Shown: piece by piece, positions 2,665 through 22,370 of the stretch
Layout: every line of letters begins with the position of its first letter
How positions within the stretch are numbered: the first letter of the stretch is position 1
Origin: an archaeon
GTDB lineage: Archaea; Nanobdellota; Nanobdellia; Pacearchaeales; GW2011-AR1
Reading direction: 5' to 3'
Assembly (NCBI GenBank): GCA_043810775.1
Contig: JBDRNU010000022.1
Location: 1 to 26,604, forward strand
Length of the DNA: 26,604 nt
Made by a program: the position numbers and the translations under genes
Notes under the pieces: model-generated
Seen by the model: the letters and a program-made list of their open reading frames with translations, nothing else
Told to the model about the DNA's origin: nothing
The model's database searches: none

Positions 2665-2672
2665 TATGATGG

Positions 2673-5811: not shown

Positions 5812-6216
5812 TTACCTTCCCCAATAGGTTCTTTTAAAAGTGACGTCTGCGCCTATTTTGTGCTCTTCTATTTTTTTCAGCTTGTGCATTAGTTCAGCTG
5901 AAGGTTCTGGCTCCTTTTTTTGAATTATTATTTTTTCTACCTTCTCCGGCTCTGGAATTAAAATTGATTTTAAAATTTCTTCATTAGTACGGCCGTGCAG
6001 GAAATCATGTTCAAATTTAGTCATAATCTGCAGGTTCTCAGGAGCATTATTTTCCTTATTCCTATCAATATGATGAACTATGTAGAATTTGAAAGGAAGG
6101 GGGTATTTTGCCCTGTTTTTTTTATAGATTGTCTCGTAGGCAATATTTCTATGAGCTAGGTTTGACCTTAGATAGCCACTCTTGTCCTTGTAAGGCTCTT
6201 TTTTATGCTGAATCAT
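5812..6216 (-). CDS. HNH endonuclease-domain protein, 134 aa
   Basis: HHIDRNKENNAPENLQIMTKFEHDFLH matches the HNH (H-N-H) spacing. Free-standing small gene. Confidence 0.7.
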   Translation of the reverse strand: MIQHKKEPYKDKSGYLRSNLAHRNIAYETIYKKNRAKYPLPFKFYIVHHIDRNKENNAPENLQIMTKFEHDFLHGRTNEEILKSILIPEPEKVEKIIIQKKEPEPSAELMHKLKKIEEHKIGADVTFKRTYWGR

Positions 6217-6260: not shown

Positions 6261-6276
6261 AAAAGTTTATAAATAC
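6261..6276 (+). promoter_or_regulatory. TATA-like promoter
   Basis: AAAAGTTTATAAATAC ends about 21 nt before the ATG at 6297, with no SD, so the mRNA is probably leaderless or short-leader. Confidence 0.45.
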
Positions 6277-6296
6277 TTTAAAATTAGATATACTCA

Positions 6297-6878
6297 ATGG
6301 CGCATCAAGGAAGAGTTCATATTATAAGCACAGCAGCTGAGGAAATAAGCAAGATAATTTTAAATAGAATTCCAAGAGATAAGCTGAAAGTTAAAAAAGG
6401 ATTAGGTTTGCGAAGACCTCTTTGGTTTAAAATAGAATTCCAAGATACTGCTGAAGAAAGAGCTTATTTAAGAGGTGTTGCTGAAAGGTATAACTCTCAA
6501 AATTCTCCTGAAAACCACTTAATAGTTCATGGAACACAAGATTGCTCTTCATTATGCCAGATTCTTTTAGATGGGAAATTAAAGCATAATAAAGGTATTG
6601 AAAATTATGGAAGCCTCGCTGCAAAATATGATGAAAGTGTTATCGCGGGAGGATATTGGGATCATGGATGGGGTATATTCGTGACAACTCCAAAGATAAT
6701 TGATACTAATTATGAACTTTCTGAAAGAAATAATTACTTAGTTGTGCCTGTGAAAGATCTTAAAGGGGTATTATTTCCCCACCATCTTGTTGAAGTAGTT
6801 AGGTATGAATTTCCTAAACACTCTAGTTTATTAAAAAGTTATGGACAATTTGCTCAAGAATTGGAAAAGCATTTTTAA
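6297..6878 (+). CDS. Hypothetical protein, 193 aa
   Basis: ATG start with a promoter box. Its stop overlaps the stop of the convergent cyclophilin gene (TTAA at 6875-6878). No domain recognised. Confidence 0.65.
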   Translation: MAHQGRVHIISTAAEEISKIILNRIPRDKLKVKKGLGLRRPLWFKIEFQDTAEERAYLRGVAERYNSQNSPENHLIVHGTQDCSSLCQILLDGKLKHNKGIENYGSLAAKYDESVIAGGYWDHGWGIFVTTPKIIDTNYELSERNNYLVVPVKDLKGVLFPHHLVEVVRYEFPKHSSLLKSYGQFAQELEKHF

Positions 6879-7420
6879 ATTATACTGGCTTTGATTATCT
6901 TAACTTCTTCGATAGGCCTATCTGAAGAATCAGTTTCTACTTTTGCGATTGCATCTATTACATCCATGCCTTGAATTACTTTGCCAAATGCTGGATGCTT
7001 ATCATCAAGAAAATTATTGTTGACTAGGTTAATGAAAAACTGGCTTCCCCCTGTATTTGGACCTGCATTTGCCATTGAAATTGTGCCTCGATTATTTTTA
7101 TTTCCACCTTTATGGGTGAATTCGTCTTTTATAGTGTATCCTGGCCCACCCATTCCTGTTCCTTGAGGGTCGCCGCCCTGAATCATAAAACTGGCAATTA
7201 TTCTATGGAAAATTACCCCATCATAAAATCCCTGATTAACCAGTTTCTCAAAATTTCCAGCTGTAACTGGCATGTCATCATACAGTTCAATTACTACATC
7301 TCCCATACTGGTTTCAAGTTTTACTTTGGTAGATTGAGACATTTTACAATATACTCCTGAAATAACTAAAATTAGAGCTATTATAAATATTCCTAAAATA
7401 ATTTTTTTCTGTTTTTTCAT
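6875..7420 (-). CDS. Cyclophilin-type peptidyl-prolyl cis-trans isomerase with N-terminal membrane anchor
   Basis: Cyclophilin signatures FHRIIASFMIQGGDP and GTISMANAGPNTGGSQFFI. N-terminus KKIILGIFIIALILVISGVY is hydrophobic. ATGA overlap with the upstream topoisomerase gene. Confidence 0.9.
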   Translation of the reverse strand: MKKQKKIILGIFIIALILVISGVYCKMSQSTKVKLETSMGDVVIELYDDMPVTAGNFEKLVNQGFYDGVIFHRIIASFMIQGGDPQGTGMGGPGYTIKDEFTHKGGNKNNRGTISMANAGPNTGGSQFFINLVNNNFLDDKHPAFGKVIQGMDVIDAIAKVETDSSDRPIEEVKIIKASII

Positions 7421-8472
7421 TGGACTAGTGACTTTATTTTATCTACCAGCTCTGGTTGAATATAGTGATGAATAGTAACATTATAATTTTCTTCCCAGGT
7501 ATGATCTTTTTTATTAAATCGCCTATGACCTAGTTTTTCTGCAATTGACAGGAAAAGCTCCTGAACTTGCTGTTTTGATGCTGATTTATGGGAAGATATG
7601 AATTCTTTAGCTTTTTTAGTGGCATAATATGAGCGGACTATGTGGGGATAAAATTCTTTTCCACAGCATTTTAAAAATTCTTCCTTGAACTGCTTGTCTT
7701 GAAGTGGATGATGTGTTAAGGGGTTGGTAAATACGAACTCTGATTTTTTCAGAGGTTTTAGAGTTTCTTTTAGTCTTTTTATGTACAATGGATGGAATTT
7801 TGAGGTTGTTTTTATTGGAACTCCGTCTTTTGCCAGATAGTTAAAAGTAACTTCCTGACCTTTAATTGAAATGTCATTTTTCTTTAAAGTAGTAAGACCT
7901 TTATGTTTATGCTGCTTGTAATAAATTTCGTTTCCCACCCTCATATAGGTTTTAAGCAGGGTGTACATTGGGAGAGCCATGTTATCTTCTTTATCGCTGA
8001 GGGAAGATGTGATTTTTTTTGTAAGTAGTGGATAGGATTTTTCAAATTCTTTTACTGCCTGATATTTTTTAATTATGTAAGATTTTCTTTTTTCTAGAGT
8101 GTATAGATATGCAAACTTACCATTTGGATTTTGATAAATTAGGTCCCAGTGGCTATGGGAAGATTCATCATGGATAGTCAGGTTTTTTGCAAATAAAGAA
8201 TAGGCTTTGTCAAGAACTTGGCCGTCTGGAAGGATATTTATTCTAGAACCCTGACATTTGCCTTCTGGAGAGAGCTGTCCTTTTATGAATTTAGGGTTTT
8301 TTTTATCCAATAGTAACTTGAAATTCTTGTGAGCTTTGAATAGTTTTATAACTTGCATTGCTTGTGGAAGAGTTTTAGAAGATTTTTTCCAAGAATTTTT
8401 AGTTTTCTCGTATACTTGAAGGTCTTTGGATATTCTTAGAGTTCCTAGACTTGTTTTTTCCTGAGTTTTCAT
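7417..8472 (-). CDS. DNA topoisomerase IB (short pox/bacterial-type)
   Basis: Core motifs YMRVGNEIY, KGLTTLKK, FNYLAKDGV, PHIVRSYYATK, LGHRRF and C-terminal TIHHYIQP (candidate catalytic Tyr). The 351-aa length fits the small TopIB group. Confidence 0.75.
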   Translation of the reverse strand: MKTQEKTSLGTLRISKDLQVYEKTKNSWKKSSKTLPQAMQVIKLFKAHKNFKLLLDKKNPKFIKGQLSPEGKCQGSRINILPDGQVLDKAYSLFAKNLTIHDESSHSHWDLIYQNPNGKFAYLYTLEKRKSYIIKKYQAVKEFEKSYPLLTKKITSSLSDKEDNMALPMYTLLKTYMRVGNEIYYKQHKHKGLTTLKKNDISIKGQEVTFNYLAKDGVPIKTTSKFHPLYIKRLKETLKPLKKSEFVFTNPLTHHPLQDKQFKEEFLKCCGKEFYPHIVRSYYATKKAKEFISSHKSASKQQVQELFLSIAEKLGHRRFNKKDHTWEENYNVTIHHYIQPELVDKIKSLVQ

Positions 8473-8508
8473 TAATTCAAGAATAATACAGAGTATTAAA
8501 ATATTGCT

Positions 8509-8907
8509 TTAGTTTTTAGAAGCAAGAATTTCCTGCAAGCCTGAAGTGGCGTATTCTATTAGCTCTTTTTCTTGTAAAGAAATATTATTTTTAGCAATAT
8601 ATGCTTCTAAATCTTGCACCAGTCTTGGAAGAACATGCGGAGCCCTGCAATGGACAAATCTTAGGCAATTGTATACTGGCTTGCCTTGACTAACCCTAAA
8701 GTTTGCAATTTCTGTCTGCATTTCCCCTAGCTCAGGCTTTTCAACAATTCTTCCTATTGGAAGAGGATTTGTGCATTTTGAAAGTTTATGCTGCAAGCAG
8801 TCCAGAGCTACATCTACATCTTCTTGCAGTATCTTGCGCTGATATTCCAGAGTAATTTCAAGCACTGGAAATTCCAGTTCTATTTTTGACGAGTATTTTT
8901 CTGCCAT
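8509..8907 (-). CDS. Hypothetical protein, 132 aa (the track version starts at a TTG at 8919)
   Basis: The ATG at 8907 lies 1 nt after the TAA of the upstream gene (TAAaATG), which suggests coupling. No domain recognised. Confidence 0.6.
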   Translation of the reverse strand: MAEKYSSKIELEFPVLEITLEYQRKILQEDVDVALDCLQHKLSKCTNPLPIGRIVEKPELGEMQTEIANFRVSQGKPVYNCLRFVHCRAPHVLPRLVQDLEAYIAKNNISLQEKELIEYATSGLQEILASKN

Positions 8908-8908
8908 T

Positions 8909-9754
8909 TTATTTTTCAAATTCTTTTTCTGACTTATTTTTTACTACTCCATAAAAAAAAGGTCTAATTGAAGAATCCATTGTTACATATTCAAGCTTTT
9001 CTAATTCAGTTTCAAGACAAACTTGCACCAACATGGCTTCTGGAGGGTTTTTAGGGAATGAACCAAGAAAGTAATAGTTACTCCAAAAATCAAATTCTTT
9101 TTTTCTACTGGAATAATATTGTTTAATATCAAACTTGGGATTAAGGTCACATTCTTTTCTTTTTAAAATTTTTTCAAGATTTTTACTATCATCAAAATGC
9201 TCCAAGGCTTTACCAAAACTTTCAGTAGCTAAAGCTTTCTGAGGGATAAAACTGATATCATTGTAACCTTCTTCAAAACCATTTCTTAATACATAAACTC
9301 CTTCTTTTAGTTCAGAATTTAATTTAATCTTAGATATTGTTTTTTTAATTTCATCAATGCCTTTACCAATAATTTTTTTTGGAGGGTTTATTAAAGTGCC
9401 TTTATCAGTTACTAATGCCAGACCCAATCCAAAGCGGTGGGATGTTAAGGAAGATGGAGCCCAGTCAAGATTACATGAGGAAAATTCCCCTCTAATTGCA
9501 GAAAGAAATGACAAAGATTCAGGAGTTGTAGGAACCCTATAATCTTCATGCTCAAACTTTTTTAGATTATATACAAATAATTTCCTACGAAATATTAGTG
9601 GAGCTCCATTATGCACTACCTGTACATGAGGAATTAGTTTATCAAATTCAATGAGAGCCATATCTCCTTCAAAGTAGTTGCCAATTTCACTTAATCCCAT
9701 TCTCTGTTTGGTTCTAAGGTAAACTATTTCATATTCTTGTTCTTGTTCTGCCAT
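8909..9754 (-). CDS. Hypothetical protein, 281 aa; first gene of the topoisomerase IB operon
   Basis: ATG start and long ORF, co-directional and tightly packed with the three downstream genes. No domain recognised. Confidence 0.65.
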   Translation of the reverse strand: MAEQEQEYEIVYLRTKQRMGLSEIGNYFEGDMALIEFDKLIPHVQVVHNGAPLIFRRKLFVYNLKKFEHEDYRVPTTPESLSFLSAIRGEFSSCNLDWAPSSLTSHRFGLGLALVTDKGTLINPPKKIIGKGIDEIKKTISKIKLNSELKEGVYVLRNGFEEGYNDISFIPQKALATESFGKALEHFDDSKNLEKILKRKECDLNPKFDIKQYYSSRKKEFDFWSNYYFLGSFPKNPPEAMLVQVCLETELEKLEYVTMDSSIRPFFYGVVKNKSEKEFEK

Positions 9755-9855
9755 ACCTCACCTAAATACCTCTAGTAATTAAACTTTTATAGCTAATTTC
9801 TTGTAAAATAGAAATATTTATAAGCTATATATTCTAGTATACAATATTGATAAAA

Positions 9856-10794
9856 ATGAATAAAACAGACGAAAAACTAATAGCTGAACTTGACAAGAAT
9901 CCCAGAATTGCAATTTCCAGACTAGCCAGGAAGCTGAGAATTTCACAGCAGGTAGCTGACTATAGACTGAAGAAACTTCAGAAGCAGGAAGTAATTTCCA
10001 AGCTTGGAGCAATAATTAATCTCAAGTCTCTTGGATTAGAGCATTATAGGGTATTTTTTTCTTTTAACTCGAGAAAGGAGTATTCAGATGAAAAGATTTT
10101 CAGCTATCTGAAAAATAAGAAAGGAGTTTATTGGGGGGCGAGGATTGGGGGCAGGTATGACCTGCATCTAGCATTGCTAGTTAAGGATTTTCAGGAGTTA
10201 GATGAGTTTATTGATGATTTTAATTCTAGCTTTCCAGGGCTGATTAAAGATTATACCAGCTGTTATTCAATTGAGCATATAATATTTAGACATAAGTATC
10301 TTAGCAAGGATTATTCTGAAATAAGCTATGGGTATAATGATAGGCTAAAGAAAACTGACAAACTTGACAGAGAAATACTTGAAAAACTAAAAGATAATTG
10401 CAGGATTTCATCGCTAGAGCTGGCTAAAGGCAAGAATATATCTTATAAAACTATTATAAACAGGATAAAGAGTCTTGAGAAAAACAAAATAATCCTAGGA
10501 TATAGATTATTTATTAAATCACAAGAAAAAAAGCCGTTTATTATACTTTTCTCGTTTAAGGATTATTCTAAGAAAGAGGAAAAAAATCTTATTTCATATC
10601 TTAGCAGAACAGACAGCACTACACAGCTGATAAGGTTATTTGGAAGCTGGAATTTATTTATTCATGCCAGGATTGAAGATAATGAAAAGCTGCAGAAACT
10701 AATAATTGATTTAAGAGATAAATTTGAGATAATTGATAATTTTGAAATTATCCCTGTATTTGAGGATATTGCTATTAATTTGTTTCCTGAATAA
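9856..10794 (+). CDS. Lrp/AsnC-family transcriptional regulator, tandem (double-length) form
   Basis: Two wHTH segments (EKLIAELDKNPRIAISRLARKLRISQQVADYRLKKL and ILEKLKDNCRISSLELAKGKNISYKTIINRIKSL), each followed by a roughly 80-aa RAM-like region. The ATG at 9856 is preferred over the TTG at 9847. Confidence 0.75.
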   Translation: MNKTDEKLIAELDKNPRIAISRLARKLRISQQVADYRLKKLQKQEVISKLGAIINLKSLGLEHYRVFFSFNSRKEYSDEKIFSYLKNKKGVYWGARIGGRYDLHLALLVKDFQELDEFIDDFNSSFPGLIKDYTSCYSIEHIIFRHKYLSKDYSEISYGYNDRLKKTDKLDREILEKLKDNCRISSLELAKGKNISYKTIINRIKSLEKNKIILGYRLFIKSQEKKPFIILFSFKDYSKKEEKNLISYLSRTDSTTQLIRLFGSWNLFIHARIEDNEKLQKLIIDLRDKFEIIDNFEIIPVFEDIAINLFPE

Positions 10795-10795
10795 G

Positions 10796-10891
10796 CTACC
10801 TTATCTTAACAAATGAGCGGAATACAAAATATACTATTGCTCCAATTGACCAGCATATTGGGCAGAAAATTAAATTCCCTCTTTTCTCCAT
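10796..10891 (-). CDS. Possible micro-ORF, 31 aa, hydrophobic (not in the track)
   Basis: Hand translation: MEKRGNLIFCPICWSIGAIVYFVFRSFVKIR*. The ATG lies 1 nt after the TAA of the upstream gene and is preceded by GGAGGAGG. Confidence 0.35.
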   Translation of the reverse strand: MEKRGNLIFCPICWSIGAIVYFVFRSFVKIR

Positions 10892-10892
10892 A

Positions 10893-11408
10893 TTAACCTC
10901 CTCCTTGGTCCTCCCTAGTCATATTTCTGAAATCACTTAACTTTATTCCCCCACATGCTATCAAACGATTATTTGCTTCTTCAACATCTACACCAAATCT
11001 TACAGCATATGCTTCTGGAGAAATATAATCACTACATTCATCACCATCAGGTGCTCCCACTTCATAACTTCTTTGCATAGGAGTACTAGTAGTTTGAATT
11101 TCAAGATTTTGAGCTCTGGCATAAAAAGAGTCTTCTCTCAATTTATCTGTAGCTTTAAGAATGCCTGCAACTACACCACCTAATCCTGTAATTGCATAAG
11201 AGGCAATAGCACCTGTAAGAATAGGACCTAAATTATGAGATTCGAAAAAATTTTGAAAATGAGGGTAAACCCATACTTTAGATATGATTACAGCAGGTAC
11301 AACCACGGCTGTTCCATAGTAAGCTGAAAATAAAATTCCCATCCCAATACTATTTCCAACTATTTTAGCTATGTTTTCTAAATTATATTTAATAGGAATA
11401 TCACCCAT
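10893..11408 (-). CDS. Membrane protein, 171 aa, with soluble acidic C-terminal half
   Basis: Three hydrophobic segments in the first roughly 85 aa. ATG start, with GTTTAAATTT about 28 nt upstream on the minus strand. Confidence 0.65.
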   Translation of the reverse strand: MGDIPIKYNLENIAKIVGNSIGMGILFSAYYGTAVVVPAVIISKVWVYPHFQNFFESHNLGPILTGAIASYAITGLGGVVAGILKATDKLREDSFYARAQNLEIQTTSTPMQRSYEVGAPDGDECSDYISPEAYAVRFGVDVEEANNRLIACGGIKLSDFRNMTREDQGGG

Positions 11409-11520
11409 ATCCTAACTTAGAATTTAGTAAATTTAAACTTTACTGTAAGGCTCTTGTAGCCCTGATTATTTTCTTGGGATTTAGAGTTAAGTTTAAATAT
11501 AGATTATTATAAAAAGAATT

Positions 11521-11898
11521 ATGGAATATTTGCTTGTTGATGATGATAAAAATGATATAGCTATGGTGAGGCCCAGACTAGAACATTTAGGGTTTAATGT
11601 TTCTGTCCGCATGATTGTTGATTTTGATGGGTTAAATAAGCTGAATAAAGAAAGAAAGCCAGAAGTAATCCAACTTGATGGGTTAGATGGTAAATGCTTT
11701 GAATTATATGATATATTTAAATCAGGGAATCCTGAATCAAATATTTTCATTTGTTCTGGAGATGATGATATTGGAAGAAAATCCAAAGAAATGAATATAC
11801 ATTTTATACATAAGGGTATGAATTATGTTGATGATATTGTGGATTATGTAACTCCTTTTATTGAAAAAAAGAGGGCTTTAAACGGGCAGGCAGTCTAA
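11521..11898 (+). CDS. Stand-alone CheY-like receiver domain protein
   Basis: LLVDDD acidic pocket, candidate phospho-acceptor in VIQLDGLDG, S in IFICSGDD and K in FIHKG at receiver-like spacing. Confidence 0.6.
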   Translation: MEYLLVDDDKNDIAMVRPRLEHLGFNVSVRMIVDFDGLNKLNKERKPEVIQLDGLDGKCFELYDIFKSGNPESNIFICSGDDDIGRKSKEMNIHFIHKGMNYVDDIVDYVTPFIEKKRALNGQAV

Positions 11899-11906
11899 GA
11901 AATAAC

Positions 11907-12410
11907 TTAGTCCATAAAAGTCTCTGAAAACCTATAGTTTCCATTGCCAAAAGCCAGCTCGCTGGCTCTGTCATATATTTCTGGCTTTAATTCAAATCCA
12001 GATTTTATGCTTCTTAGTATTACTGGAGAGGCTCTTATCTGCCTCCCAACCCATTCTGCAATTCTATTATTAATTATTTCCTCATGAGAGTGCATGCTAG
12101 TTATATGGTCGGGCAGAAAATCATAAACTGCGTGCACTACCTCGTGGCATAACTCCTTATCAGTTGTATAAGAATCTGCGTCATATACTAGGGTTATTAA
12201 TTTAGAATCAGGCAGGCAGTGAGATGAGGCGAGGGGAAAGACAAACCATCCAGAGTCTACTAATCCTCTTACTGATTTTGCAGTTATTGGCTCTGTAATT
12301 ATCTTATATAGCTTTTCCATATGAGGAGTCCTATGCAGTTTAGAAATTTCAAGCTGTAATTCAGCCCAGCTCATCTTCCAGCTTCCCTTATAATTCCCTG
12401 AATTTTCCAT
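11907..12410 (-). CDS. HExxH metallopeptidase-like protein (the track version starts at a TTG at 12458)
   Basis: Contains ELCHEVVHAVYDF. The ATG at 12410 has ATTTATAAAC about 25-30 nt upstream on the minus strand, and the longer TTG version would translate that box. Confidence 0.55.
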   Translation of the reverse strand: MENSGNYKGSWKMSWAELQLEISKLHRTPHMEKLYKIITEPITAKSVRGLVDSGWFVFPLASSHCLPDSKLITLVYDADSYTTDKELCHEVVHAVYDFLPDHITSMHSHEEIINNRIAEWVGRQIRASPVILRSIKSGFELKPEIYDRASELAFGNGNYRFSETFMD

Positions 12411-12464
12411 TAATTTTTGCAGATTTAGGAGTTTATAAATTTTAGTTAAAATCAGCAATATAAA

Positions 12465-13579: not shown

Positions 13580-14749
13580 ATGAGTATTGAATTATTAGCT
13601 CCTGTGGGAAATTTTAAGTGCTTAAATGCAGCAATTAAAGCTGGCTGTGATGCTGTATATTTTGGGCTGCAAGACTTTAATATGAGGGACAATGCACAGA
13701 ATTTCAGCTTAAAAGATTTAGATAAGTTAAGCAAGATTTGCAGGGAAAATAAAATCAGGGCTTACCTTACTTTAAATACTATTATTTTTGATTCTGAATT
13801 AAAGAAAATTGAGAGGATTATTAAAAAAGTCAGGGGAAAGATAGATGCAATTATATGCTGGGACCTTGCTGTCATAAGCCTGTGCAAGAAGTATAAGATT
13901 CCGTTTCATATTTCTACCCAGGCATCAATTGCAAATTCTAAAGCAGCTGAATTTTACAAGAAGCTTGGAGCTGAAAGAGTGATTCTTGCTAGAGAGCTTG
14001 ACTTAAAGCAGATAAAGAAGGTTTCTAAGATACTGCCAGTTGAGATTTTTATTCACGGGGCAATGTGCCTAGCTATTAGCGGGAGATGCTTAACTTCCCA
14101 GTTTTTGAACAAAAAGAGCGCTAATAGAGGCAGATGCACGCATCCGTGCAGGAAATCTTATATTGTAAGAGATGAAGAAGGCAGGGAGCTGAAAGTTGAG
14201 AATAATAAGATTTTTTCAGCTAAAGATTTATGCACTTTGCCTTTTATTGAAAAGCTAAAGAAATCTGGAGCTAGAGGATTTAAAATTGAGGGAAGAAGCA
14301 GAGAGCCTGAATATGTTTATGCAGTTACAAGAGCTTACAGGAAGGCTTTAGATAAAAAACTAAATCAAAAAGAGATTAATAAGCTTACAGAAGAGCTAAG
14401 GGAAGTTTATAACAGGGGTTTTTCAGAAGGATTTTATTTTTGCGCGCCCACAAGTGATGATTTATCAAGGAAGGATCATGGAGAGGCTAAGAAGACTAAG
14501 AAGTTTATTGGCAAGGTATTTAATTACTGGAAAAAACAGGGGGTGGCGGGGGTAAAGCTTAGTGCTGGAAAGTTAAAGATAGGGGATGAAATTATAGTTG
14601 TAGGAGAGAATACTTTTTTTAAGACTAAAATTAAAAGTATGGAAAAAGAGCATAAAAAAGTAAAAATAGCTGAAAAGGGTGGAAAGGTTGGAATTAGGGT
14701 GGGGAAGTGCAGAGGTGGTGATGAGGTTTATCTTGTAGTGGGGAAGTAA
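13580..14749 (+). CDS. Peptidase U32 family protein
   Basis: N-terminus ELLAPVGNFKCLNAAIKAGCDAVYFG. EIFIHGAMCLAISGRCLTS nearly matches the U32 signature E-x-F-x2-G-[SA]-[LIVM]-C-x4-G-x-C. Confidence 0.85.
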   Translation: MSIELLAPVGNFKCLNAAIKAGCDAVYFGLQDFNMRDNAQNFSLKDLDKLSKICRENKIRAYLTLNTIIFDSELKKIERIIKKVRGKIDAIICWDLAVISLCKKYKIPFHISTQASIANSKAAEFYKKLGAERVILARELDLKQIKKVSKILPVEIFIHGAMCLAISGRCLTSQFLNKKSANRGRCTHPCRKSYIVRDEEGRELKVENNKIFSAKDLCTLPFIEKLKKSGARGFKIEGRSREPEYVYAVTRAYRKALDKKLNQKEINKLTEELREVYNRGFSEGFYFCAPTSDDLSRKDHGEAKKTKKFIGKVFNYWKKQGVAGVKLSAGKLKIGDEIIVVGENTFFKTKIKSMEKEHKKVKIAEKGGKVGIRVGKCRGGDEVYLVVGK

Positions 14750-14886
14750 AGCTCTCGCTGATTAAGGTAGATCATGACTAGAGCTCCGATTATAAACAGC
14801 CAGTCTACTAGATAAGTTAAAGCCAGAAACCCCAAGGCAATTAGGGAATATACTATTACTTTATAATTTATTTTTTTCTTTTTCAT
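14728..14886 (-). CDS. Possible small two-TM membrane protein, 52 aa (not in the track)
   Basis: Hand translation: MKKKKINYKVIVYSLIALGFLALTYLVDWLFIIGALVMIYLNQRELYFPTTR*. The ATG overlaps, as ATGA, the stop of an 8-codon relic MNWRKYKI*. Its 3' end overlaps the convergent U32 gene by 22 nt. Confidence 0.4.
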   Translation of the reverse strand: MKKKKINYKVIVYSLIALGFLALTYLVDWLFIIGALVMIYLNQRELYFPTTR

Positions 14887-14909
14887 ATTTTATATTTTCT
14901 CCAGTTCAT
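14885..14909. repeat. 25-nt exact direct repeat, copy 1
   Basis: ATATTTTATATTTTCTCCAGTTCAT is identical to 15578-15602. On the minus strand it encodes MNWRKYKI. Confidence 0.9.
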
Positions 14910-14937
14910 ACTTGAAGTTTTATTCTTTTCTGCATCT

Positions 14938-15483
14938 TTAATTAAAGAAAGTGTTAAGAATCTCTTTTGTAATTTCTAGAGATTTATCACAAAAATTCTT
15001 TAAATTTCTTGAAGAGCTGTTTTTAAAGTAAACATTTTCAACTATCTTATCTTTGTTTCTAACAGAACGCACTGCTGGAACAAAATCACCATCTCCTGAT
15101 ACTAAAATTGCAATATCAAAATTATTATCACAAGCATTCTCCACCATATCAACAGCCATATTTATGTCATCTTCTTTTATAATATAATAAAATTTATTTG
15201 TTCCGGTTATATTTCTTTTTAATAATTTACATAGGACAAGGTGAAAATTAGGTATTTGCTTTAATTTCTCAAAAAATTCTTTTTGACTTTTGTATTTTTT
15301 AGGATTACGCTCTATGTCAAGAAGGGCATTGTAGTAATAGATTGCAACAACTTTATTTTTACCAGCTAAAAATTGAGCAAATTTTTCAAAATTAAACTTC
15401 TTTAAGCTTTTATTCTGACCGTATAATTTCCTTAAACCAAAATAAAAATTATTTCCATCAATAAAAACAGCAACTCTTTTCAT
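14938..15483 (-). CDS. NYN/LabA-like domain protein (predicted RNase)
   Basis: N-terminal RVAVFIDGNNFYFGL and ILVSGDGDFVPAVRSVR match the NYN/LabA acidic motifs. Confidence 0.8.
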   Translation of the reverse strand: MKRVAVFIDGNNFYFGLRKLYGQNKSLKKFNFEKFAQFLAGKNKVVAIYYYNALLDIERNPKKYKSQKEFFEKLKQIPNFHLVLCKLLKRNITGTNKFYYIIKEDDINMAVDMVENACDNNFDIAILVSGDGDFVPAVRSVRNKDKIVENVYFKNSSSRNLKNFCDKSLEITKEILNTFFN

Positions 15484-15490
15484 ATGAAAT

Positions 15491-15519
15491 GCCCATCCCT
15501 TGCCGAAGCAAGGATGAGC
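15491..15519 (-). promoter_or_regulatory. 5'-proximal stem-loop with a UUCG tetraloop, upstream of the NYN gene
   Basis: The minus strand reads GCUCAUCCUUGC-UUCG-GCAAGGGAUGGGC: 6 bp closed by C(UUCG)G, extended by further pairs past a 1-nt bulge. It ends 7 nt before the ATG. Confidence 0.45.
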
Positions 15520-15575
15520 GTATATGATTATTTCAGGCAGTTGAAGTTTAAAAGTCTTTTGTTGTGTAAATTTTA

Positions 15576-16265
15576 CTATATTTTATATTTTCTCCAGTTC
15601 ATGCTTTTCCCCAATCCCTTCGCCACCCTGACTGCATCTTTAATCAAGTATCTTGGAAGATTTCTAAGTTCAGCCGGAGTAATGAATATACAGGGGATTT
15701 TATACTTTTTGTACAGCTTGTTTTTTTCAACTTTTTTTTTCCAGGATTTAGGATGCCCACCATAATACTCAATGAATACATTATAGCGGGGAAGGTAAAA
15801 GTCTGGGACGCATATCCAGGCATCAAGCTTCAATGCACTGGATTCATAGCTTGCCTTAATTTTCCTGTCATAAAGAAAATTAGCTATTTGCTGTTCGCCT
15901 TTACTCCTAACTTTGAACTTGAACTTAGTTTTTTGCTTAAGTTCATTGAAATTCCTGCCTCCTGACAGGAATTTTTTCCATGCTTCTGGATGTTCAGCAT
16001 AGTATTTTTTCATTTCTTGAGATTTCTGCTTTCTTACATTTGGATGGTCGCGCCACCATTGAGTCATTATTTTATCGAGCTTGGCCTTATGACTTGGAGA
16101 TAGGTGCTTGCCTTTAGTTGGACTAATTAGCCTCCCTTCTTTATAAGCTCGCTTTAAACCTTTAGAAATATTTTTCTTCATACTGGCTGGAAGCTTTTTC
16201 CCGTGCCAGTATCCTTGCTTTCCAAGCCAATAATATCCTCTACCTGTTTTTTTGTTTTCTGACAT
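15576..16265 (-). CDS. Homing-endonuclease-like protein: NUMOD3-type DNA-binding repeats plus a PD-(D/E)xK-fold nuclease domain
   Basis: Two NUMOD3-like motifs (HGKKLPASMKKNISKGLKRAY and KGKHLSPSHKAKLDKIM). The C-terminus SKGEQQIANFLYDRKIKASYE ... PDFYLPRYNVFIEYYGG resembles restriction-endonuclease-fold domains. Confidence 0.55.
   Translation of the reverse strand: MSENKKTGRGYYWLGKQGYWHGKKLPASMKKNISKGLKRAYKEGRLISPTKGKHLSPSHKAKLDKIMTQWWRDHPNVRKQKSQEMKKYYAEHPEAWKKFLSGGRNFNELKQKTKFKFKVRSKGEQQIANFLYDRKIKASYESSALKLDAWICVPDFYLPRYNVFIEYYGGHPKSWKKKVEKNKLYKKYKIPCIFITPAELRNLPRYLIKDAVRVAKGLGKSMNWRKYKI
15578..15602. repeat. 25-nt exact direct repeat, copy 2
   Basis: Identical to 14885-14909. Here it forms the last eight sense codons of the 229-aa nuclease gene. 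Confidence 0.9.
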
Positions 16266-16788: not shown

Positions 16789-17772
16789 ATGGCAAATAAG
16801 GGAATTTCCAGAAGAGATTTCTTAAAATTAGCAGCAGTAACAGGACTAGCTGTTCCAAGTTCAGGATGTGGTTTAAAGGAGTTTATTTTTCCTAAAAAAC
16901 CTGCATATATTCCTAATCCAGAATTTGCAAAGCTTTTACCTACCTTAAAAGAGATAATACTAGAAGAAGGAGAAGAATATTTTTCATTTCCAGAAGATTT
17001 TCCTGATAGGATAGATTCAATTGAGGAAATTAATCAGACTTTATATCCTGAGGTTCAAAATTCAATTGATATTTTTCTTGAAAAAAAGAACACTTATCCA
17101 GAACTGCATAAGCTTTCTGCAATTAATATTAAATCATTGCTTTATGCAGCTGCTGGTGTTGGATTTTTTAAGACTGCAAGCTGGGGCCAGAAATTCTTTG
17201 GAAAAACTAAATTTGACAGATTTCAAGCAAGTGCTGTTAAATATCTTCTCACTAGTATGTTTGCTCTGCATACACTAGCAGCAGCGTTTGGTTCAAAAGG
17301 ACAATACTCTCATATTACTAAAGACATAAGTGTAGATTTGGGAAATTCTAGAAGCTCAACAAAAAAGTTTGTGGGGCATGAAGCTTTTCATTATTTATAT
17401 TTTAAAAGTGTTAAAAAAAGAGAGCCTATTTGGGTAGTTGAAGGTTTTGCTGATGCAGCTATTTTGAGTGCTTTAGATAATAATGGACTTTTAGAAAAAA
17501 CTAAAAATGAAGTTAGGAGGGAGTCATTAGAAGATATGATTGCTATTTATAATTCAGTAAGAAATAAAGAAGATGCTTCTACTGAACTTCCAAAAGAGTT
17601 TCAGGAATTTTCTTCTAAATTTATGAGTGGAGTTGGGAATTACTCTTTTGGCTATAGTTTTTTTAGAATACGGGAAAGGCAATTAGGAAAAGGCATTTAT
17701 GCATCTATTTTAGAAGAAGGGAGCTTGAAACCTGTTGAGCCCTTGACTAGTTTAAATATTAAGAACAAATAA
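16789..17772 (+). CDS. Tat-signal lipoprotein with a peptidase-MA-like (HExxH ... WxxEGxA) domain
   Basis: Twin-arginine motif SRRDFLKLAAVTGLAV followed by a lipobox-like SSGC. GHEAFHYLYF ... IWVVEGFADAA fits the gluzincin pattern. Confidence 0.65.
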   Translation: MANKGISRRDFLKLAAVTGLAVPSSGCGLKEFIFPKKPAYIPNPEFAKLLPTLKEIILEEGEEYFSFPEDFPDRIDSIEEINQTLYPEVQNSIDIFLEKKNTYPELHKLSAINIKSLLYAAAGVGFFKTASWGQKFFGKTKFDRFQASAVKYLLTSMFALHTLAAAFGSKGQYSHITKDISVDLGNSRSSTKKFVGHEAFHYLYFKSVKKREPIWVVEGFADAAILSALDNNGLLEKTKNEVRRESLEDMIAIYNSVRNKEDASTELPKEFQEFSSKFMSGVGNYSFGYSFFRIRERQLGKGIYASILEEGSLKPVEPLTSLNIKNK

Positions 17773-17790
17773 TCTTAATTTAATTTTTTA
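17761..17790. repeat. 30-nt exact direct repeat, copy 1
   Basis: AAGAACAAATAATCTTAATTTAATTTTTTA is identical to 21755-21784. It covers K-N-K-stop of the gene at 16789..17772 plus 18 nt of spacer. Confidence 0.9.
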
Positions 17791-17928
17791 TTATCGAATA
17801 ACTTTTTTTACTTTTCCACACCTTAGACACTTGAATTTCTGGGCAAATTTCCCATTGCCAGCATTTTCCGGACCCATAAACTTGGTCCAGTGATGAAAAC
17901 CAAATAGACATTTAATATTCTTTGCCAT
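17791..17928 (-). CDS. Small zinc-ribbon-like protein, 45 aa (not in the track)
   Basis: Hand translation: MAKNIKCLFGFHHWTKFMGPENAGNGKFAQKFKCLRCGKVKKVIR*. The pattern C-x4-H-H ... C-x2-C resembles small phage-type proteins (DUF1660-like), recalled from memory. Confidence 0.45.
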   Translation of the reverse strand: MAKNIKCLFGFHHWTKFMGPENAGNGKFAQKFKCLRCGKVKKVIR

Positions 17929-17965
17929 AGTTTAAACTTGATAAGAGTATTTATTTAATTTTCTA

Positions 17966-18724
17966 TTAGAAATCATAACTAACACCAGCTAAAGCCCTAA
18001 TTGAATTAATTTCTCCAAAACTAGCCTCCATGCTTTGATAACCTATTGATAAATTGACAGTGACATCGTCTGCTAAATTATATTCAATTCCTAAACTACC
18101 ACTAATGCCAATTGGATTATCACTTTCACTAGTTACACTTTCAAATTCCCCATATCTATCATGACCTGATTCAACTTCAGCATCAATCATTAGAGGCAAG
18201 CCAATTTTCCCTACTAATCCAATACTTTCAGAACTTATTCTTCCACCAACATATGGCTCTAACGTAACTAGGCCTGGCACAAACTGAGTATAGACAAAAG
18301 AGGCATTATCTCCAGGACGCCTATCAGATGATTGTTTTTTTACATCATACATACCTTCCCTATATCCATCTGCGAAAAAACCAGAATTAATAATAGCATC
18401 AGCTCCAAATAAAAACCTTAGAACATCAGTGCCATATGAACCTTCAACACCTAATCTTAATCCAATATCTTCTCCACTATTAAGATTAGTATCAGTAGTT
18501 CCTGATAAAAAACCAGCATCATCAGGATGTACATCAACTGTCTGTACATCATCATTTATCTTAAGATTATAAAAATTAAAGTCTAAACCAAAGTTTCCCC
18601 TAGTCTCAAAATATTTATCTCGGCTTTTTGAATCTGAATCACTTGATGCAAATGCTGGAACTGGAATAAGAGGCAGTAAAGTAGTGAGTAGAATAGCTGC
18701 AATTTTTGAAAATCTTTTAGCCAT
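17966..18724 (-). CDS. Secreted protein resembling a bacterial outer-membrane beta-barrel
   Basis: Signal peptide ending PAFA-SS. Repeated amphipathic beta-strand-like segments (GLRLGVEGSYG, GISGSLGIEYNL, VTVNLSIGYQSM). C-terminus ALAGVSYDF ends in an aromatic residue, like an OMP beta-signal. Confidence 0.55.
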   Translation of the reverse strand: MAKRFSKIAAILLTTLLPLIPVPAFASSDSDSKSRDKYFETRGNFGLDFNFYNLKINDDVQTVDVHPDDAGFLSGTTDTNLNSGEDIGLRLGVEGSYGTDVLRFLFGADAIINSGFFADGYREGMYDVKKQSSDRRPGDNASFVYTQFVPGLVTLEPYVGGRISSESIGLVGKIGLPLMIDAEVESGHDRYGEFESVTSESDNPIGISGSLGIEYNLADDVTVNLSIGYQSMEASFGEINSIRALAGVSYDF

Positions 18725-18841
18725 ATTATATCAGAGGTATTGGGATATTTAAATTTATATTCATTTTAAAATATATATTTACTTTCCCTGCCACCCTACT
18801 AATATCAAAACTTATATAAACATTAATTTTAGAGGATTTTT

Positions 18842-19318
18842 ATGAATAAAATAAAATTATCTAAAAAATTAGTTATAGCAGTACAAAATACTAATAATAA
18901 GTATGATAATTTTCAAGGAATAGTCCTATTCGGCAGTTTTGCAAACCCAGAAGTTAAAAAACCAAGAGATGTAGATTTTATTCCAGTCCTAAATAAATAT
19001 GATGGTTGTTGGCAGTTTTCAACAGATGATGAGGGAGATTATGATGAAGCATATCATGGTTTTAAAGAAATGGAAGAATTCTTTGGAACCCACTTCCCAG
19101 AGTTTGCTGAAGAGTATGATGTGTTATTTAAAACCCGTTGGAAAAGAAAAGCATTATTCCATGTTGAATCACTGGTGGCTATTGATAATCTTCCTGAGTT
19201 ACAATCATCGTTAGTCCACTACAGAACAAACCCTGAAAATTTTATTGGAACAAAAAAAGCTGCTCAAATAATATCTGAGTTTTATAAAAGTTTAAGAAAT
19301 CCTCTAGTCCCTTGTTAA
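18842..19318 (+). CDS. Nucleotidyltransferase-fold (Pol-beta/MNT-like) protein, 158 aa
   Basis: GIVLFGSFANPEVKKPRDVDFIPV matches the G-S-x(n)-D-x-D motif of minimal nucleotidyltransferases. Confidence 0.6.
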   Translation: MNKIKLSKKLVIAVQNTNNKYDNFQGIVLFGSFANPEVKKPRDVDFIPVLNKYDGCWQFSTDDEGDYDEAYHGFKEMEEFFGTHFPEFAEEYDVLFKTRWKRKALFHVESLVAIDNLPELQSSLVHYRTNPENFIGTKKAAQIISEFYKSLRNPLVPC

Positions 19319-19347
19319 TTAAAATATCAGGCTTTCCACACCTGACT

Positions 19348-20964
19348 TTATTTTGACTTTATGATTTCTACCTTATCTCCAGGAGATAGGTTAAAATCTT
19401 CCCATTTTTCTTCAGAAATAACTTCCCCATTAACTCTTACCAATGGTATTCCTTCAATTTTATATCTTTGAAGCATTGATTCAATTGATGTATATATACA
19501 AATAAATGGCTCTCCTTCCCTTATTATAACTTCTGCAGATTTTTCATTCATTAGAGTTTGGGAAAGCTCCAATAATTTCCTGATTTTTTCACTGCCCTCT
19601 TCTCTAATAAGAGTCTTATTTTCAATTAAAGTATTTAAATCATTAATTACAGTAAAAACTTGATTTAAAACAGGATCATAATCAGGATGGTCTTCTAGTA
19701 TAACTTGATAAGTATTCTTTGACCACTGCCTAAATCCTTTATTTCGGTCATCTTGGGTTGCTTCCTTTTTTCCAGTTAAAATGAGATTAATAACTTCTGC
19801 AACATAGTAATCAAACTCACTTACTTTTTTAGGATCAAGATATTTACTTTCTGCCATTGCTTGCATTCTGTCATAAGGATGAACTGCACCCTGGATTTTG
19901 AGTTCAACTTCTTCATCTGTTAGTCCTACTAGTGATTCTAGACTTGGTTCTTTTCCTTCTTTTCTGGCTTTTCTTGCAGCTGCTTTTTCAAATTTTTCCT
20001 GAAATCTGGAATCTACTTCTTTATCTTTTTCTTTTTGAGCTGCCTGTTCTTTTAGTTTTTCTTCAATTGAAATGCTTTTATAACATTGATATAAGGTAGA
20101 ATGATAACTTCCTAATTCTCTTAGTCCCCGCTCTATAATTTCATGATTTGCTGTATGCTCTTCAATATGCTTTCTTAATAAAGAAACATATAGCCTAGCT
20201 GCTTTCTCACTCGAATTTAAAGTTGTTTTAATATTATTTCTTCTAAGAACTCGGTTAACTCCTTTAAACTGTCCGTCTAATTCTGGATCAAAAATAATAT
20301 TAACTGCTTTATATAACATTCCCAAGGATTCAGCCACTTTATCTCTTTTTTTACCTACTTCAATAATTGCTGTTACATTTTCTTCATTAGTTAGAAGTTT
20401 ATGGGCATAGGAAATACATTTCACATTTTCCCAGTTGCTTCCTGGATAGCTAGTTGGAGTGTCATATCCTTTTGGGCCTGGTAAAGCTAGTCTCTGGCTT
20501 GTTGGAGCTGCTGCTATTTCTTTTAATCTTCCAGCTGTTTCTCCCAATCCTCCAAGAAGTAATTTAAGCCTATATAGAGGATCTTGACTAAGTTCAGTTA
20601 CCACTAAATCTTTGATTCTGCTATTTTTATCAACATCATTAAGCCCATGAAGAATTAATTCCAGATTATCAGGGTGTCTTCTTACATAATCTGACATTAA
20701 AACAGCAACTCTTGGAACTATATCTTTTTGAGTTCCTAATTCCATCATCACTTTCCAATAAATATTATAAATACCTCTTAAATGAGTATGTAACTTGGTT
20801 ATCTCTTTTTTTTCGCAGATAAATTCTATCCCCTTATGTAGAAATTCAACATACTCTGAATGCTTAAGGAACTTATTTACATTTGGGCTTTTTTTCCCTG
20901 TTCTAGGCCAAATATTATAAACTGCTTCAAAAATCTTGCCAGTGTTTAGGTATTGCTCTCCCAT
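19348..20964 (-). CDS. Large orphan protein, 538 aa, with a C-terminal ThiS/MoaD-like beta-grasp domain lacking a GG terminus
   Basis: The last roughly 65 aa (EVIIREGEPFICIYTSIESMLQRYKIEGIPLVRVNGEVISEEKWEDFNLSPGDKVEIIKSK) reproduce the ThiS spacing N-x8-W-x7-GD. The helical, Lys/Glu-rich N-terminal 470 aa are unrecognised. Confidence 0.7.
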   Translation of the reverse strand: MGEQYLNTGKIFEAVYNIWPRTGKKSPNVNKFLKHSEYVEFLHKGIEFICEKKEITKLHTHLRGIYNIYWKVMMELGTQKDIVPRVAVLMSDYVRRHPDNLELILHGLNDVDKNSRIKDLVVTELSQDPLYRLKLLLGGLGETAGRLKEIAAAPTSQRLALPGPKGYDTPTSYPGSNWENVKCISYAHKLLTNEENVTAIIEVGKKRDKVAESLGMLYKAVNIIFDPELDGQFKGVNRVLRRNNIKTTLNSSEKAARLYVSLLRKHIEEHTANHEIIERGLRELGSYHSTLYQCYKSISIEEKLKEQAAQKEKDKEVDSRFQEKFEKAAARKARKEGKEPSLESLVGLTDEEVELKIQGAVHPYDRMQAMAESKYLDPKKVSEFDYYVAEVINLILTGKKEATQDDRNKGFRQWSKNTYQVILEDHPDYDPVLNQVFTVINDLNTLIENKTLIREEGSEKIRKLLELSQTLMNEKSAEVIIREGEPFICIYTSIESMLQRYKIEGIPLVRVNGEVISEEKWEDFNLSPGDKVEIIKSK

Positions 20965-21091
20965 CTAAAATTTGCAATAAAGGATAATTTTTAAATAAAT
21001 CTATACTGGAAAATAGACTTTTCCTCCACCTGCCACTCTCTTTAGCTGATAACAATAAATTTTATATATACTAAAATTACAGATAATTACA

Positions 21092-21766
21092 ATGAAAGTA
21101 GGGAAATATGAAATTGATGAAGATAGAGTAGCTATATTAAACTCAAGTATGGGTCCGAGTTCAGAGAGTGCTTTTTTAACTTTATTTGAAAAATATATTG
21201 AAGACCGTGAAAAACCATTAATGATTGTTCTTAATACTACTGGAGGTTTGGCATTATCGCCAATGAATCTAGTAAATTTATGCCATTATGGGCATCCTAA
21301 ACCTAATTTAATAACATATGCTTTTGAAAAGTGCATGTCTGCAGGAGTAATAGCTATGCAGTTTGGCACTAGGAGAATTTCTGACCCAGACACAAAATTT
21401 ATGTTTCACCCGATTCGCAATATGCTTACAGGTGAAATCGCTAAACCAGACTCTTTAACATGGAGAATTGATAAATCAATTTACAAATCACTTGCAGACA
21501 GATGCGGAGTAAGTGTTGAACAATTGCGGGATGATTTTCCCAATGATGTATATCTTAGTGCTCAAGAAGCTATGATTTATGGAAAAAAAGGACTAATTGA
21601 CGAAATTGTGCAGGCACCTCCTGAATTAAGAGACAAAGTTAAGAATGGACTAAGAAGTGATATAAGCATGGAGGAGCTTGAAAAGTTAATTAATAGAATA
21701 AGTGAGATTACACTGCAATTAGCTGAAGAGCATATGAAAAGAGTTCGTTCTGAAAAGAACAAATAA
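21092..21766 (+). CDS. ClpP-family (S14-like) serine protease homologue with a coiled-coil-like C-terminal tail
   Basis: Aligns by eye with E. coli ClpP: MIVLNTTGG vs LYINSPGG, EKCMSAGV vs QAASMGA (Ser), KFMFHPI vs RVMIHQP (His), VYLSAQEAMIYG..IDEI vs RFLSAPEAVEYGLVDSI. Confidence 0.7.
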   Translation: MKVGKYEIDEDRVAILNSSMGPSSESAFLTLFEKYIEDREKPLMIVLNTTGGLALSPMNLVNLCHYGHPKPNLITYAFEKCMSAGVIAMQFGTRRISDPDTKFMFHPIRNMLTGEIAKPDSLTWRIDKSIYKSLADRCGVSVEQLRDDFPNDVYLSAQEAMIYGKKGLIDEIVQAPPELRDKVKNGLRSDISMEELEKLINRISEITLQLAEEHMKRVRSEKNK

Positions 21767-21784
21767 TCTTAATTTAATTTTTTA
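21755..21784. repeat. 30-nt exact direct repeat, copy 2
   Basis: Identical to 17761-17790. It covers K-N-K-stop of the ClpP-like gene plus the spacer and 3' end of the convergent exonuclease gene. Confidence 0.9.
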
Positions 21785-22370
21785 ATGAGTTTAATACTTG
21801 CTCAAATTCTTTGGCTTGAATAATAGCATCTTCTAGGGCGTTATGTTTTAGATCGGAACCTCTTAGGCCAAGCTGAGCTATGTGTGCATTAATATCGCGA
21901 ACAGCTCCACGATACATAGAATTAATATCTTCCCCACTATGCCCAAAAGGATTCTGACCTTGATAAAAATTATCAAAATACCAGGCAGTGAACATTCCGT
22001 CAAATTTTATTGGAGCTGCTGCTTCAACTGGCTTAAATCCTTTAGTATTAGATGAAACCCATTCTGCGTAATCTTTCATTACTTTTTCAGGAGATTCGCC
22101 TTTTTCTGCCAGAATATCAAGAATTTTATGAGGATTGAAACTTGGACTTTTAGGATTAAATTCATCAAGATGCCTTAAATCTGACAAGCATCTTAATCCT
22201 ATAGAACTTACTTTCATTGCCTCAAGAATAAAATTTCTAGAAATTGGCTTAATCTCACGATAAAACTGAATTGAGGTATCTCCTACAATACAAGCTCCTA
22301 AAGAAAGCATTGAGTATTTTCCCGGAGTTCGACCTGAAGATTCAATATCAACTGATACGTATTTTTTCAT
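21774..22370 (-). CDS. DEDDh 3'-5' exonuclease (DnaQ/RNase T-like)
   Basis: Exo I motif VSVDIESSG and Exo III motif HNALEDAIIQA (H-x4-D), in a 198-aa protein. Confidence 0.75.
   Translation of the reverse strand: MKKYVSVDIESSGRTPGKYSMLSLGACIVGDTSIQFYREIKPISRNFILEAMKVSSIGLRCLSDLRHLDEFNPKSPSFNPHKILDILAEKGESPEKVMKDYAEWVSSNTKGFKPVEAAAPIKFDGMFTAWYFDNFYQGQNPFGHSGEDINSMYRGAVRDINAHIAQLGLRGSDLKHNALEDAIIQAKEFEQVLNSLKN

Follow-up and report, generated by a model that had tools for sequence, protein, structure and literature searches.

Cis-mobilizable elements (CIMEs) are integrase-free islands flanked by att sites, which accrete beside integrative elements such as the ICESt-type elements of Streptococcus. 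Tyrosine-recombinase elements, among them tRNA-targeting islands and the archaeal SSV- and pTN3-type elements, target the 3' ends of genes and bring a replacement end with them. DPANN archaea have tiny, densely packed genomes in which the order of genes is very poorly conserved, and the ways in which they acquire genes are poorly understood. Here, we analyzed a 26,604-nt stretch of DNA from an archaeon of the Pacearchaeales (GenBank assembly GCA_043810775.1, contig JBDRNU010000022.1, positions 1 to 26,604; hereafter the window), in which two identical 30-nt direct repeats bracket a 4-kb block of five genes lying between two convergent genes. Among known elements, the closest kind is probably an att-flanked island that, as in CIMEs, lacks an integrase of its own, or else an integrative element directed at a gene's 3' end. 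The repeats and the genes that end in them are as follows.

17761 to 17790, plus strand: left 30-nt copy, comprising the end of the 327-aa gene (K-N-K-TAA), 7 nt of spacer and a non-functional 11-nt copy of the exonuclease 3' end
21755 to 21784, plus strand: right 30-nt copy, comprising the end of the ClpP-like gene (K-N-K-TAA), 7 nt of spacer and the true exonuclease 3' end (L-K-N-stop, minus strand)
16789 to 17772, plus strand: left flank gene, 327 aa, with a twin-arginine translocation signal and a HEAFH motif; orphan
21092 to 21766, plus strand: 224-aa ClpP-family serine protease (CLP_protease, 6.5e-13) with a 50-aa C-terminal extension, last four codons in the right repeat
21774 to 22370, minus strand: right flank gene, 198-aa DEDD-type 3'-5' exonuclease (PADLOC exonuclease effector, 2.9e-35), natural C-terminus inside the right repeat

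A repeat search confirmed what the first-pass annotation, made from the sequence alone, had reported: AAGAACAAATAATCTTAATTTAATTTTTTA occurs in two exact plus-strand copies, at 17761-17790 and 21755-21784, with an interior of 3964 bp between them. No third copy with up to three mismatches was found in the window, and 100 dinucleotide-preserving shuffles gave 0 matches, in agreement with the earlier view that the identity is not due to chance. The pair is the longest maximal exact repeat of the window; the second is a 25-nt pair described below, and all others reach at most 17 nt, which is noise level. The bases adjoining the 30-mer differ between the copies at both ends. When the 200-nt flanks of both copies were aligned locally, shuffles reached the observed scores in fractions of 0.07 and 0.31. 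The repeat is thus an isolated, sharp-edged block rather than the best-preserved remnant of some longer duplication.

Translation bore out that positions 1-12 of the 30-mer read K-N-K-TAA and end the open reading frame (ORF) at 16789..17772 in the left copy and that at 21092..21766 in the right copy. The remaining 18 nt had been taken for spacer, which is wrong at the right copy. Here, the last 11 nt are coding on the minus strand, comprising the stop codon, N, K and two bases of the L codon of the exonuclease gene, so that the true spacer between the ClpP-like and the exonuclease genes is 7 nt and not 18. The 30-mer therefore carries the terminal codons of three genes, namely the 327-aa and the ClpP-like genes (K-N-K-stop) and, on the other strand, the exonuclease gene (L-K-N-stop). 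At the left repeat, the copy of the exonuclease end (17780-17790) closes only a 43-aa shadow ORF that overlaps a 45-aa ORF of the block in another frame; judged from its reading frames, it serves no credible gene and is a functionless duplicate. In ten metagenome relatives of the exonuclease (59-75% identical), the protein terminates at the equivalent position and in a similar tail, in which a conserved VL precedes five to six residues in the closest and up to 11 in the most distant relatives; their total length is 195-204 aa compared to 198 aa here. Because the L-K-N-stop end is native to the exonuclease family, it is the copy at 17780-17790 that is the duplicate without a gene. Such a functionless duplicate of a gene end is the expected remnant of a junction duplication.

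We found no evidence that the 30-mer is a generic junction motif, as judged by sequence searches in which no copies turned up at other junctions of the window, in related DNA, in JGI metagenome contigs or in IMG/VR. In 1.36 Mb of related DPANN DNA, AAGAACAAATAATCTTAATTTAATTTTTTA had 0 matches at up to six mismatches (substitutions), and it was absent from the JGI metagenome contigs and from IMG/VR. The possibility of a widespread bidirectional terminator, named in the first-pass annotation as the finding that would speak against an insertion scar, thus received no support.

The locus resembles CIMEs in that cargo lies between identical short direct repeats, that no recombination gene is found inside and that a recombinase acting in trans is presumed. 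Two att-like copies, cargo only and no recombination module are what we found here. A further likeness is the apparent tandem accretion of cassettes at one gene end in the locus neighbouring the 30-mer pair. In contrast to CIMEs, the host belongs to DPANN and no cognate integrase or parent element is known for the island; moreover, it would have entered between two convergent protein genes, in a gap of 7 nt, instead of at a tRNA gene or a single gene end, and mobilization is presumed only. With elements moved by tyrosine recombinases, the locus shares direct repeats that include the terminal codons of the target, which is rebuilt after insertion; in the present case, exactly 30 nt hold the ends of both flank genes. 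Two observations from outside the repeat pair, a displaced 3' end at a second scar and a repeat next to a Phage_integrase gene in a related genome, extend this likeness. The difference is that no integrase is present in or beside the segment or on the contig.

Other described systems fit less well. Integron gene cassettes with attC sites have been reported in Nanoarchaeota and other archaea (PMC9668308). Like these, the locus consists of small, promoter-poor cassettes of one to few genes that stand side by side without a recombinase of their own, whereas the 30-mer island lacks a hairpin-forming attC and IntI and has genes in both directions. We ruled out an integron cassette, since neither 30-nt junction shows an attC fold (DNA folding of both strands gave z-scores of -0.66 to +0.67, no different from shuffles), the Rfam search of the window was empty and no IntI is encoded in it; tRNA genes are likewise missing from the window. 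Elements that depend on Xer and dif (IMEX and pdif modules) have been described in an IS1202-family context (PMC10132070). They are likewise recombinase-free modules between repeats of ~28 bp that are moved by a host enzyme. A Xer/dif module was ruled out because there is no 11-6-11 palindrome, the best arm match being 8/11, which 17% of random 50-nt windows also reach. A DDE transposon, an insertion sequence or a casposon was ruled out in the absence of terminal inverted repeats and of a transposase or Cas1, and a diversity-generating retroelement because the window holds no reverse transcriptase and no adenine-specific differences: such elements have repeats of ~60-150 nt at gene 3' ends, which is why one was considered, whereas the 30-mer pair is only 30 nt long and identical, and the second pair differs by a block with an indel and not at adenines.

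Additional information came from this second repeat pair, which encloses one NYN-domain gene at a distance of 2 kb. Its copies, at 14885-14913 and 15578-15606, are identical over 25 nt (29 nt with one mismatch). The features of this locus are listed below.

14883 to 14948, minus strand: second scar, downstream copy, a displaced 3' end of a 229-like gene, SLIKDAEKNKTSSMNWRKYKI plus stop, holding the 29-nt repeat at 14885-14913
15576 to 15647, minus strand: second scar, upstream copy, the intact 3' end of the 229-aa gene, LIKDAVRVAKGLGKSMNWRKYKI plus stop, holding the 29-nt repeat at 15578-15606
14938 to 15483, minus strand: NYN-domain gene, a single-gene cassette between the second repeat pair
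15484 to 15520, minus strand: stable GC-rich hairpin (UUCG loop) immediately before the NYN start codon, kept in the sister genome
15576 to 16265, minus strand: 229-aa PD-(D/E)xK-type nuclease-like gene (PADLOC PDC-S69, 2.7e-15), whose 3' end would be the target of the second insertion
14728 to 14886, minus strand: 52-aa membrane ORF, probably once coupled to the 229-like gene via an ATGA stop/start overlap

The downstream remnant (SLIKDAEKNKTSSMNWRKYKI) comprises 21 codons, and its TGA overlaps the ATG of the 52-aa ORF. Beyond a divergent stretch with an indel, the two copies share an extra homology block of 15/16 nt that is significant against shuffles, so that the second pair overall amounts to a duplicated gene end of ~66-72 nt. 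Comparison with a sister genome (GCA_043815245.1), in which one locus is syntenic with the window from 4 to 16 kb, gave further insight into the history of this region. From its sequence, the downstream remnant is a different allele of the 229-like 3' end and not a copy of the resident gene end. This allele is resident in the sister genome, where the 229-like gene ends in LIKDAEKTKQK..SMKWQKYKI and stop and shows the ATGA overlap with the next gene.

The NYN gene is 91% identical to its sister-genome counterpart at the protein level and 88.7% at the DNA level, compared to 61-87% protein identity for six neighbouring genes. The use of the same codon at conserved residues (0.76 versus 0.51-0.61 for the neighbours) and the third-position identity (0.75 versus 0.50-0.57) point in the same direction. 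The 92-nt spacer upstream of the NYN gene, including the hairpin, is ~90% identical as well. Based on these higher values, the NYN cassette with its spacer and hairpin is younger than its flanks. In the sister genome (positions 1-3900 of the syntenic locus), it stands in a different context, behind four extra genes, the last of which is an HD-domain gene that runs into another displaced 229-type end, KYDAVNLIIKSMKKYM plus stop. The simplest reading of these sequences would be repeated insertion at the 229-like 3' end, in which each arrival brings a new gene end and displaces the old one downstream; the successive displacement of 229-like ends resembles tandem accretion at att sites. Cassettes have turned over at this scar, and the comparison shows that cassette gain with duplication of a gene end does occur in the 229/NYN neighbourhood, although this is not proof for the 30-mer pair. 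The sister genome supports the view that the repeat around the NYN gene is a second, older scar of the same type as the 30-mer pair.

The hairpin upstream of the NYN gene has a folding z-score of -3.3 and a counterpart at 2770-2812 of the sister locus; it had no match in Rfam and was not found in 101 other loci or in IMG/VR, where the NYN protein had no match either. The 229-aa protein has lysine-rich N-terminal motifs and may be related to homing endonucleases. More than 100 homologues are found in DPANN metagenomes, and this metagenome-assembled genome (MAG) and the sister MAG have two copies each. That the nuclease is a multi-copy mobile gene found no support; the identical protein on many contigs represents the same locus in many samples. 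At 481-548 of the sister locus, the 229-like gene is frameshifted in an A run: it reads RFLIKDAEKTKQKV plus stop in frame, with the conserved tail KSMKWQKYKI plus stop in another frame, which may reflect a sequencing error, a pseudogene or a slippery site.

We surveyed 94 DPANN sequences (1.36 Mb) for isolated exact direct-repeat pairs of at least 20 nt spaced 0.3-15 kb apart. The survey gave 16 pairs, which represent about ten independent cases, two of them inside the window. In one region of a Woesearchaeota MAG (locus L053, 4951-7403), an exact 23-nt repeat (6240-6262 and 6801-6823) encloses one SUKH-1 gene, whose last eight codons it holds, the other copy lying after the stop codon of the preceding gene. 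A Phage_integrase gene begins 9 nt from one of the copies, and the case is a useful positive control for a gene-end repeat beside a recombinase; its layout looks integron-like or accretion-like. We also observed exact, sharp-edged repeats of 52, 24 and 51 nt in three further loci (L009 13958-14881, L038 4763-5547 and L034 1789-2357), each of which encloses one small gene, in one instance a methyltransferase gene. Given these mixed results, we claim no general rule for DPANN repeats.

On balance, we favour the explanation that the two 30-mers are attL/attR-like junctions left by the insertion of ~4 kb between the convergent 327-aa and exonuclease genes, which would have proceeded via a circle of ~3994 bp and a catalyst acting in trans. 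In the proposed sequence of events, ~4 kb of DNA would have entered the 7-nt gap between the two genes by a single crossover of the Campbell type between a circular DNA of ~3994 bp and the chromosome, which shared a core of 30 bp. The reaction would have been catalysed by a recombinase, probably of the tyrosine type, whose gene would lie elsewhere in the genome; a possible alternative is host homologous recombination acting on the short identity. Before the event, both flank genes at the empty site, and likewise the ClpP-like and 45-aa genes on the circle, would have been convergent and complete. After it, the ClpP-like gene, the last of the cargo, would end in the spare K-N-K-stop, while the spare exonuclease end would lie idle at the left junction. 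The flanking genes would have stayed intact because the duplicated 30 nt hold both gene ends. We infer the arrival of the 4 kb, as opposed to some other history, as well as the circular intermediate and the enzyme, from the following observations. The 30-nt repeat is exact, sharp-edged and far beyond chance; the copy of the exonuclease end at the left junction has no gene; the neighbouring NYN cassette has a gene-end repeat and is younger than its flanks; the gene-end repeat in the Woesearchaeota MAG adjoins a Phage_integrase gene; and the 30-mer is not a common motif in the searched DNA.

A number of results weigh against this explanation. The GC content is flat across the contig (0.30-0.34), with typical values in the 4-kb block, and the tetranucleotide distance of the block from the rest ranks in the middle of equal-length windows (fraction 0.435). 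The first-pass annotation had spoken of attL/attR-type scars and proposed a comparison of composition inside and outside the repeats. The anatomy of the junction duplication and the second scar with its sister-genome support are in line with such scars; a distinct composition of the enclosed DNA is not seen. Profile scans with Pfam, PHROGs, NCBIfam and PADLOC, covering all window ORFs of at least 90 aa plus the 45-aa and 52-aa ORFs beside the repeats, detected no integrase, transposase or other recombinase in the 26.6-kb window, just as the first reading of the sequence had found none.

Neither an empty site nor a free circle was seen in the searched databases, which hold no genome with close relatives of the flanks or the cargo. 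The loci of the ten exonuclease relatives have neighbours unrelated to the genes of the window and hence provide no empty site, and 80 DPANN loci found via the neighbouring U32 peptidase, which is at most 71% identical to its homologues in Pacearchaeota, Woesearchaeota and Nanoarchaeota, showed no synteny around the 30-nt repeats. The U32 matches assign the source of the window to the DPANN archaea. The left flank gene is itself an orphan: the sole match of the 327-aa protein among 5.8 billion proteins is itself, a scan of one genome per species revealed no relative, and an exact look-up of the flank proteins found nothing on record. As this gene is as orphan as the cargo, the repeats do not divide a core from an accessory part, and the boundary between chromosome and island is not clearly marked, which weakens the case. 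Furthermore, the two repeat pairs of the window share no sequence, so that one sequence-specific recombinase cannot explain both. Finally, other repeats of the survey enclose housekeeping genes or sit in small paralogues, so not all such pairs are insertion scars.

Several other explanations have to be weighed against the insertion of a circle. Illegitimate recombination without a dedicated element is rather improbable in our view. It could take the form of a homology-facilitated or template-switch insertion from a relative, or of a tandem duplication after which a deletion removed all of the first block copy except its final 30 nt, now fused to the 327-aa gene. The single-gene scrambling between the window and the sister genome, the native composition of the block and the messy gene-end remnants of the region are all in keeping with such events; however, two events with arbitrary ends, or re-priming on 30 nt, would be needed to keep both flanking frames, and one integration event is more economical. 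Target-site duplication appears unlikely. According to this scenario, an integrase or transposase made staggered cuts of ~30 bp, the segment 17791-21754 was ligated in and gap filling duplicated the 30 bp, as happens on a different scale in CRISPR repeat duplication or casposon insertion. The near-equal length of the two pairs (30 nt and 25-29 nt), the sharp edges of the repeat and the lack of any sequence common to both pairs, which fits a sequence-blind mechanism, would be accounted for. It is difficult to reconcile with the ends of the insert, which lack terminal inverted repeats, with the absence of a transposase, Cas1 or integrase from the window, and with the ClpP-like gene, which would have come without a stop codon; the second pair, a gene end of ~66-72 nt with a different allele, also goes beyond a clean target-site duplication.

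The repeat might also stem from the assembly, if an empty chromosomal site and a free circular replicon of ~3994 bp, both with the 30-mer, had been joined by a de Bruijn assembler working at small k (<=31). By reasoning only, 30 nt equals k-1 at k=31, and a circle printed linearly has an overlap at both ends. We regard this as very unlikely, since k141 or SPAdes NODE labels in the names of contigs from related MAGs suggest a large final k, at which a repeat of 30 nt would be resolved (although these labels are not from the source MAG), and since the second pair has a mismatch and cannot be a k-mer artefact. Even if true, a 30-mer common to circle and chromosome would be an att pair, and the biology would be unchanged. 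The least credible alternative is that the 30-mer is a functional module, a shared tail plus bidirectional terminator, which was copied by gene conversion or selected without any insertion. A T6 run follows both plus-strand genes, and a weaker look-alike, ATTTAATTTTCTA, is located at 17953-17965; yet there is no flanking homology for conversion and no secondary structure, and the short motif has 6 matches versus 2.3 expected, two of which are the repeat itself, so that enrichment is not clear. In addition, the module is absent from the other convergent junctions of the window and from the 1.36 Mb of related genomes, and at the left copy the portion from the exonuclease end is without function.

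A broader but doubtful possibility is that DPANN archaea of this group use an undescribed route, in which cassettes are added at gene-end junctions with a stop-codon duplication of ~25-30 bp and without an element-encoded recombinase. The last gene of a cassette would then borrow the spare stop, and tightly packed flanking genes would survive. Such a route would operate by short-homology crossover of excised circles or by a trans-acting enzyme with a ruler of ~30 bp, and it would unite both scars of the window, the shared younger NYN cassette and the single-gene brackets in related genomes as results of one process.

Apart from the ClpP-like gene listed above, the block between the 30-nt repeats contains four genes.

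17791 to 17928, minus strand: 45-aa Cys/His small ORF, stop codon abutting the left repeat, no significant family match
17966 to 18724, minus strand: 252-aa outer-membrane beta-barrel-like protein with a signal peptide (OMP_b-brl, 4e-07, above cut-off), ending in YDF
18842 to 19318, plus strand: 158-aa Pol-beta-type nucleotidyltransferase, a weak assignment (Polbeta, 1.6e-4, below cut-off; PDC-S09, 2.2e-4)
19348 to 20964, minus strand: 538-aa mostly helical protein with a C-terminal ThiS-like beta-grasp domain that lacks a GG end; rare family

The best Pfam E-value of the 45-aa ORF is 0.061, below cut-off, and the ORF is apparently not annotated by NCBI, given that consecutive protein accessions leave it no room. 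The 252-aa protein is named "opacity family porin" by NCBI and had no sequence match in the PDB; a beta-barrel protein is odd in an archaeon and may be of bacterial or otherwise foreign origin. The 538-aa protein matched only itself among 5.8 billion proteins, and a search of 1.84 billion representative proteins yielded no more than five remote relatives. In the two cases in which contigs were fetched, no ClpP-like or nucleotidyltransferase gene adjoins the relative, which has housekeeping surroundings; one relative stands alone between the genes for leucyl-tRNA synthetase and UvrA on a 958-kb contig. One relative occupies positions 6001-7728 of locus L105. AlphaFold, run on the 538-aa sequence alone, gave no usable model (predicted local distance difference test score, pLDDT, 44.8). 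The assignment of the 224-aa protein to the ClpP family, which rests on its motifs and the profile match, appears sound, as the Ser, His and Asp motifs are visible in the sequence. The 538-aa and ClpP-like proteins are absent from IMG/VR, and deposited phages gave none or only distant matches; at 90% identity, five further proteins from 17.9-23.7 kb are singletons, as is the NYN protein (14.9 kb).

The enclosed genes had been proposed as the best candidate for an accessory system. The five genes are arranged in the orientations -, -, +, -, + with two divergent promoter regions and form at least three to four transcription units. Comparison of the gene set with the described anti-phage systems in PADLOC revealed no system, only the weak nucleotidyltransferase match to PDC-S09, and the neighbourhood of the 538-aa relatives is not conserved. 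They are accessory genes, yet nothing indicates that they act together, and their interpretation as one system is unsupported.

A few observations concern the remainder of the window. The sole recombinase-related fold on the contig is a 351-aa type IB topoisomerase (7417..8472, minus strand; Topoisom_I, 1.8e-15), ~9 kb from the repeats. Because its motifs are similar, it was considered as a tyrosine recombinase and rejected, as the Pfam match is Topoisom_I; a nearby CCCTT was judged to be due to chance. A direct repeat of 32 nt with 88% identity (17 nt exact) and marginal significance occurs at 8037-8068 and 8911-8942, one copy forming the last codons of a 281-aa gene (..KEFEK plus stop) and the other lying within the topoisomerase IB gene (..KEFEKS..). 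A free-standing HNH_3 gene is located at 5812..6216. A GC-rich and very stable hairpin (-24.3 kcal/mol, 44 nt) is found at 2601-2644 on the minus strand, in an AT-rich intergenic region downstream of a 279-aa gene. Between 4117-12458 of the window and 7645-9948 of the sister locus, gene order is scrambled at the single-gene scale: the 270-aa and GTPase genes are convergent in the window and divergent in the sister genome, and a block at 5.8-11.9 kb (HNH, cyclophilin, topoisomerase IB, Lrp and others) is missing from the 10.5 kb of the sister locus examined.

At present, the locus adds one more integrase-less island, whose mobility is unproven. The region is a hot spot with turnover of NYN, PD-(D/E)xK nuclease and exonuclease genes, some of which resemble defence genes. 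Scars that spare both neighbouring genes provide a testable picture of gene gain at the resolution of a single junction. A recombinase acting in trans or a route via short homology, if demonstrated, would account for some of the mosaicism in the gene content of DPANN archaea.

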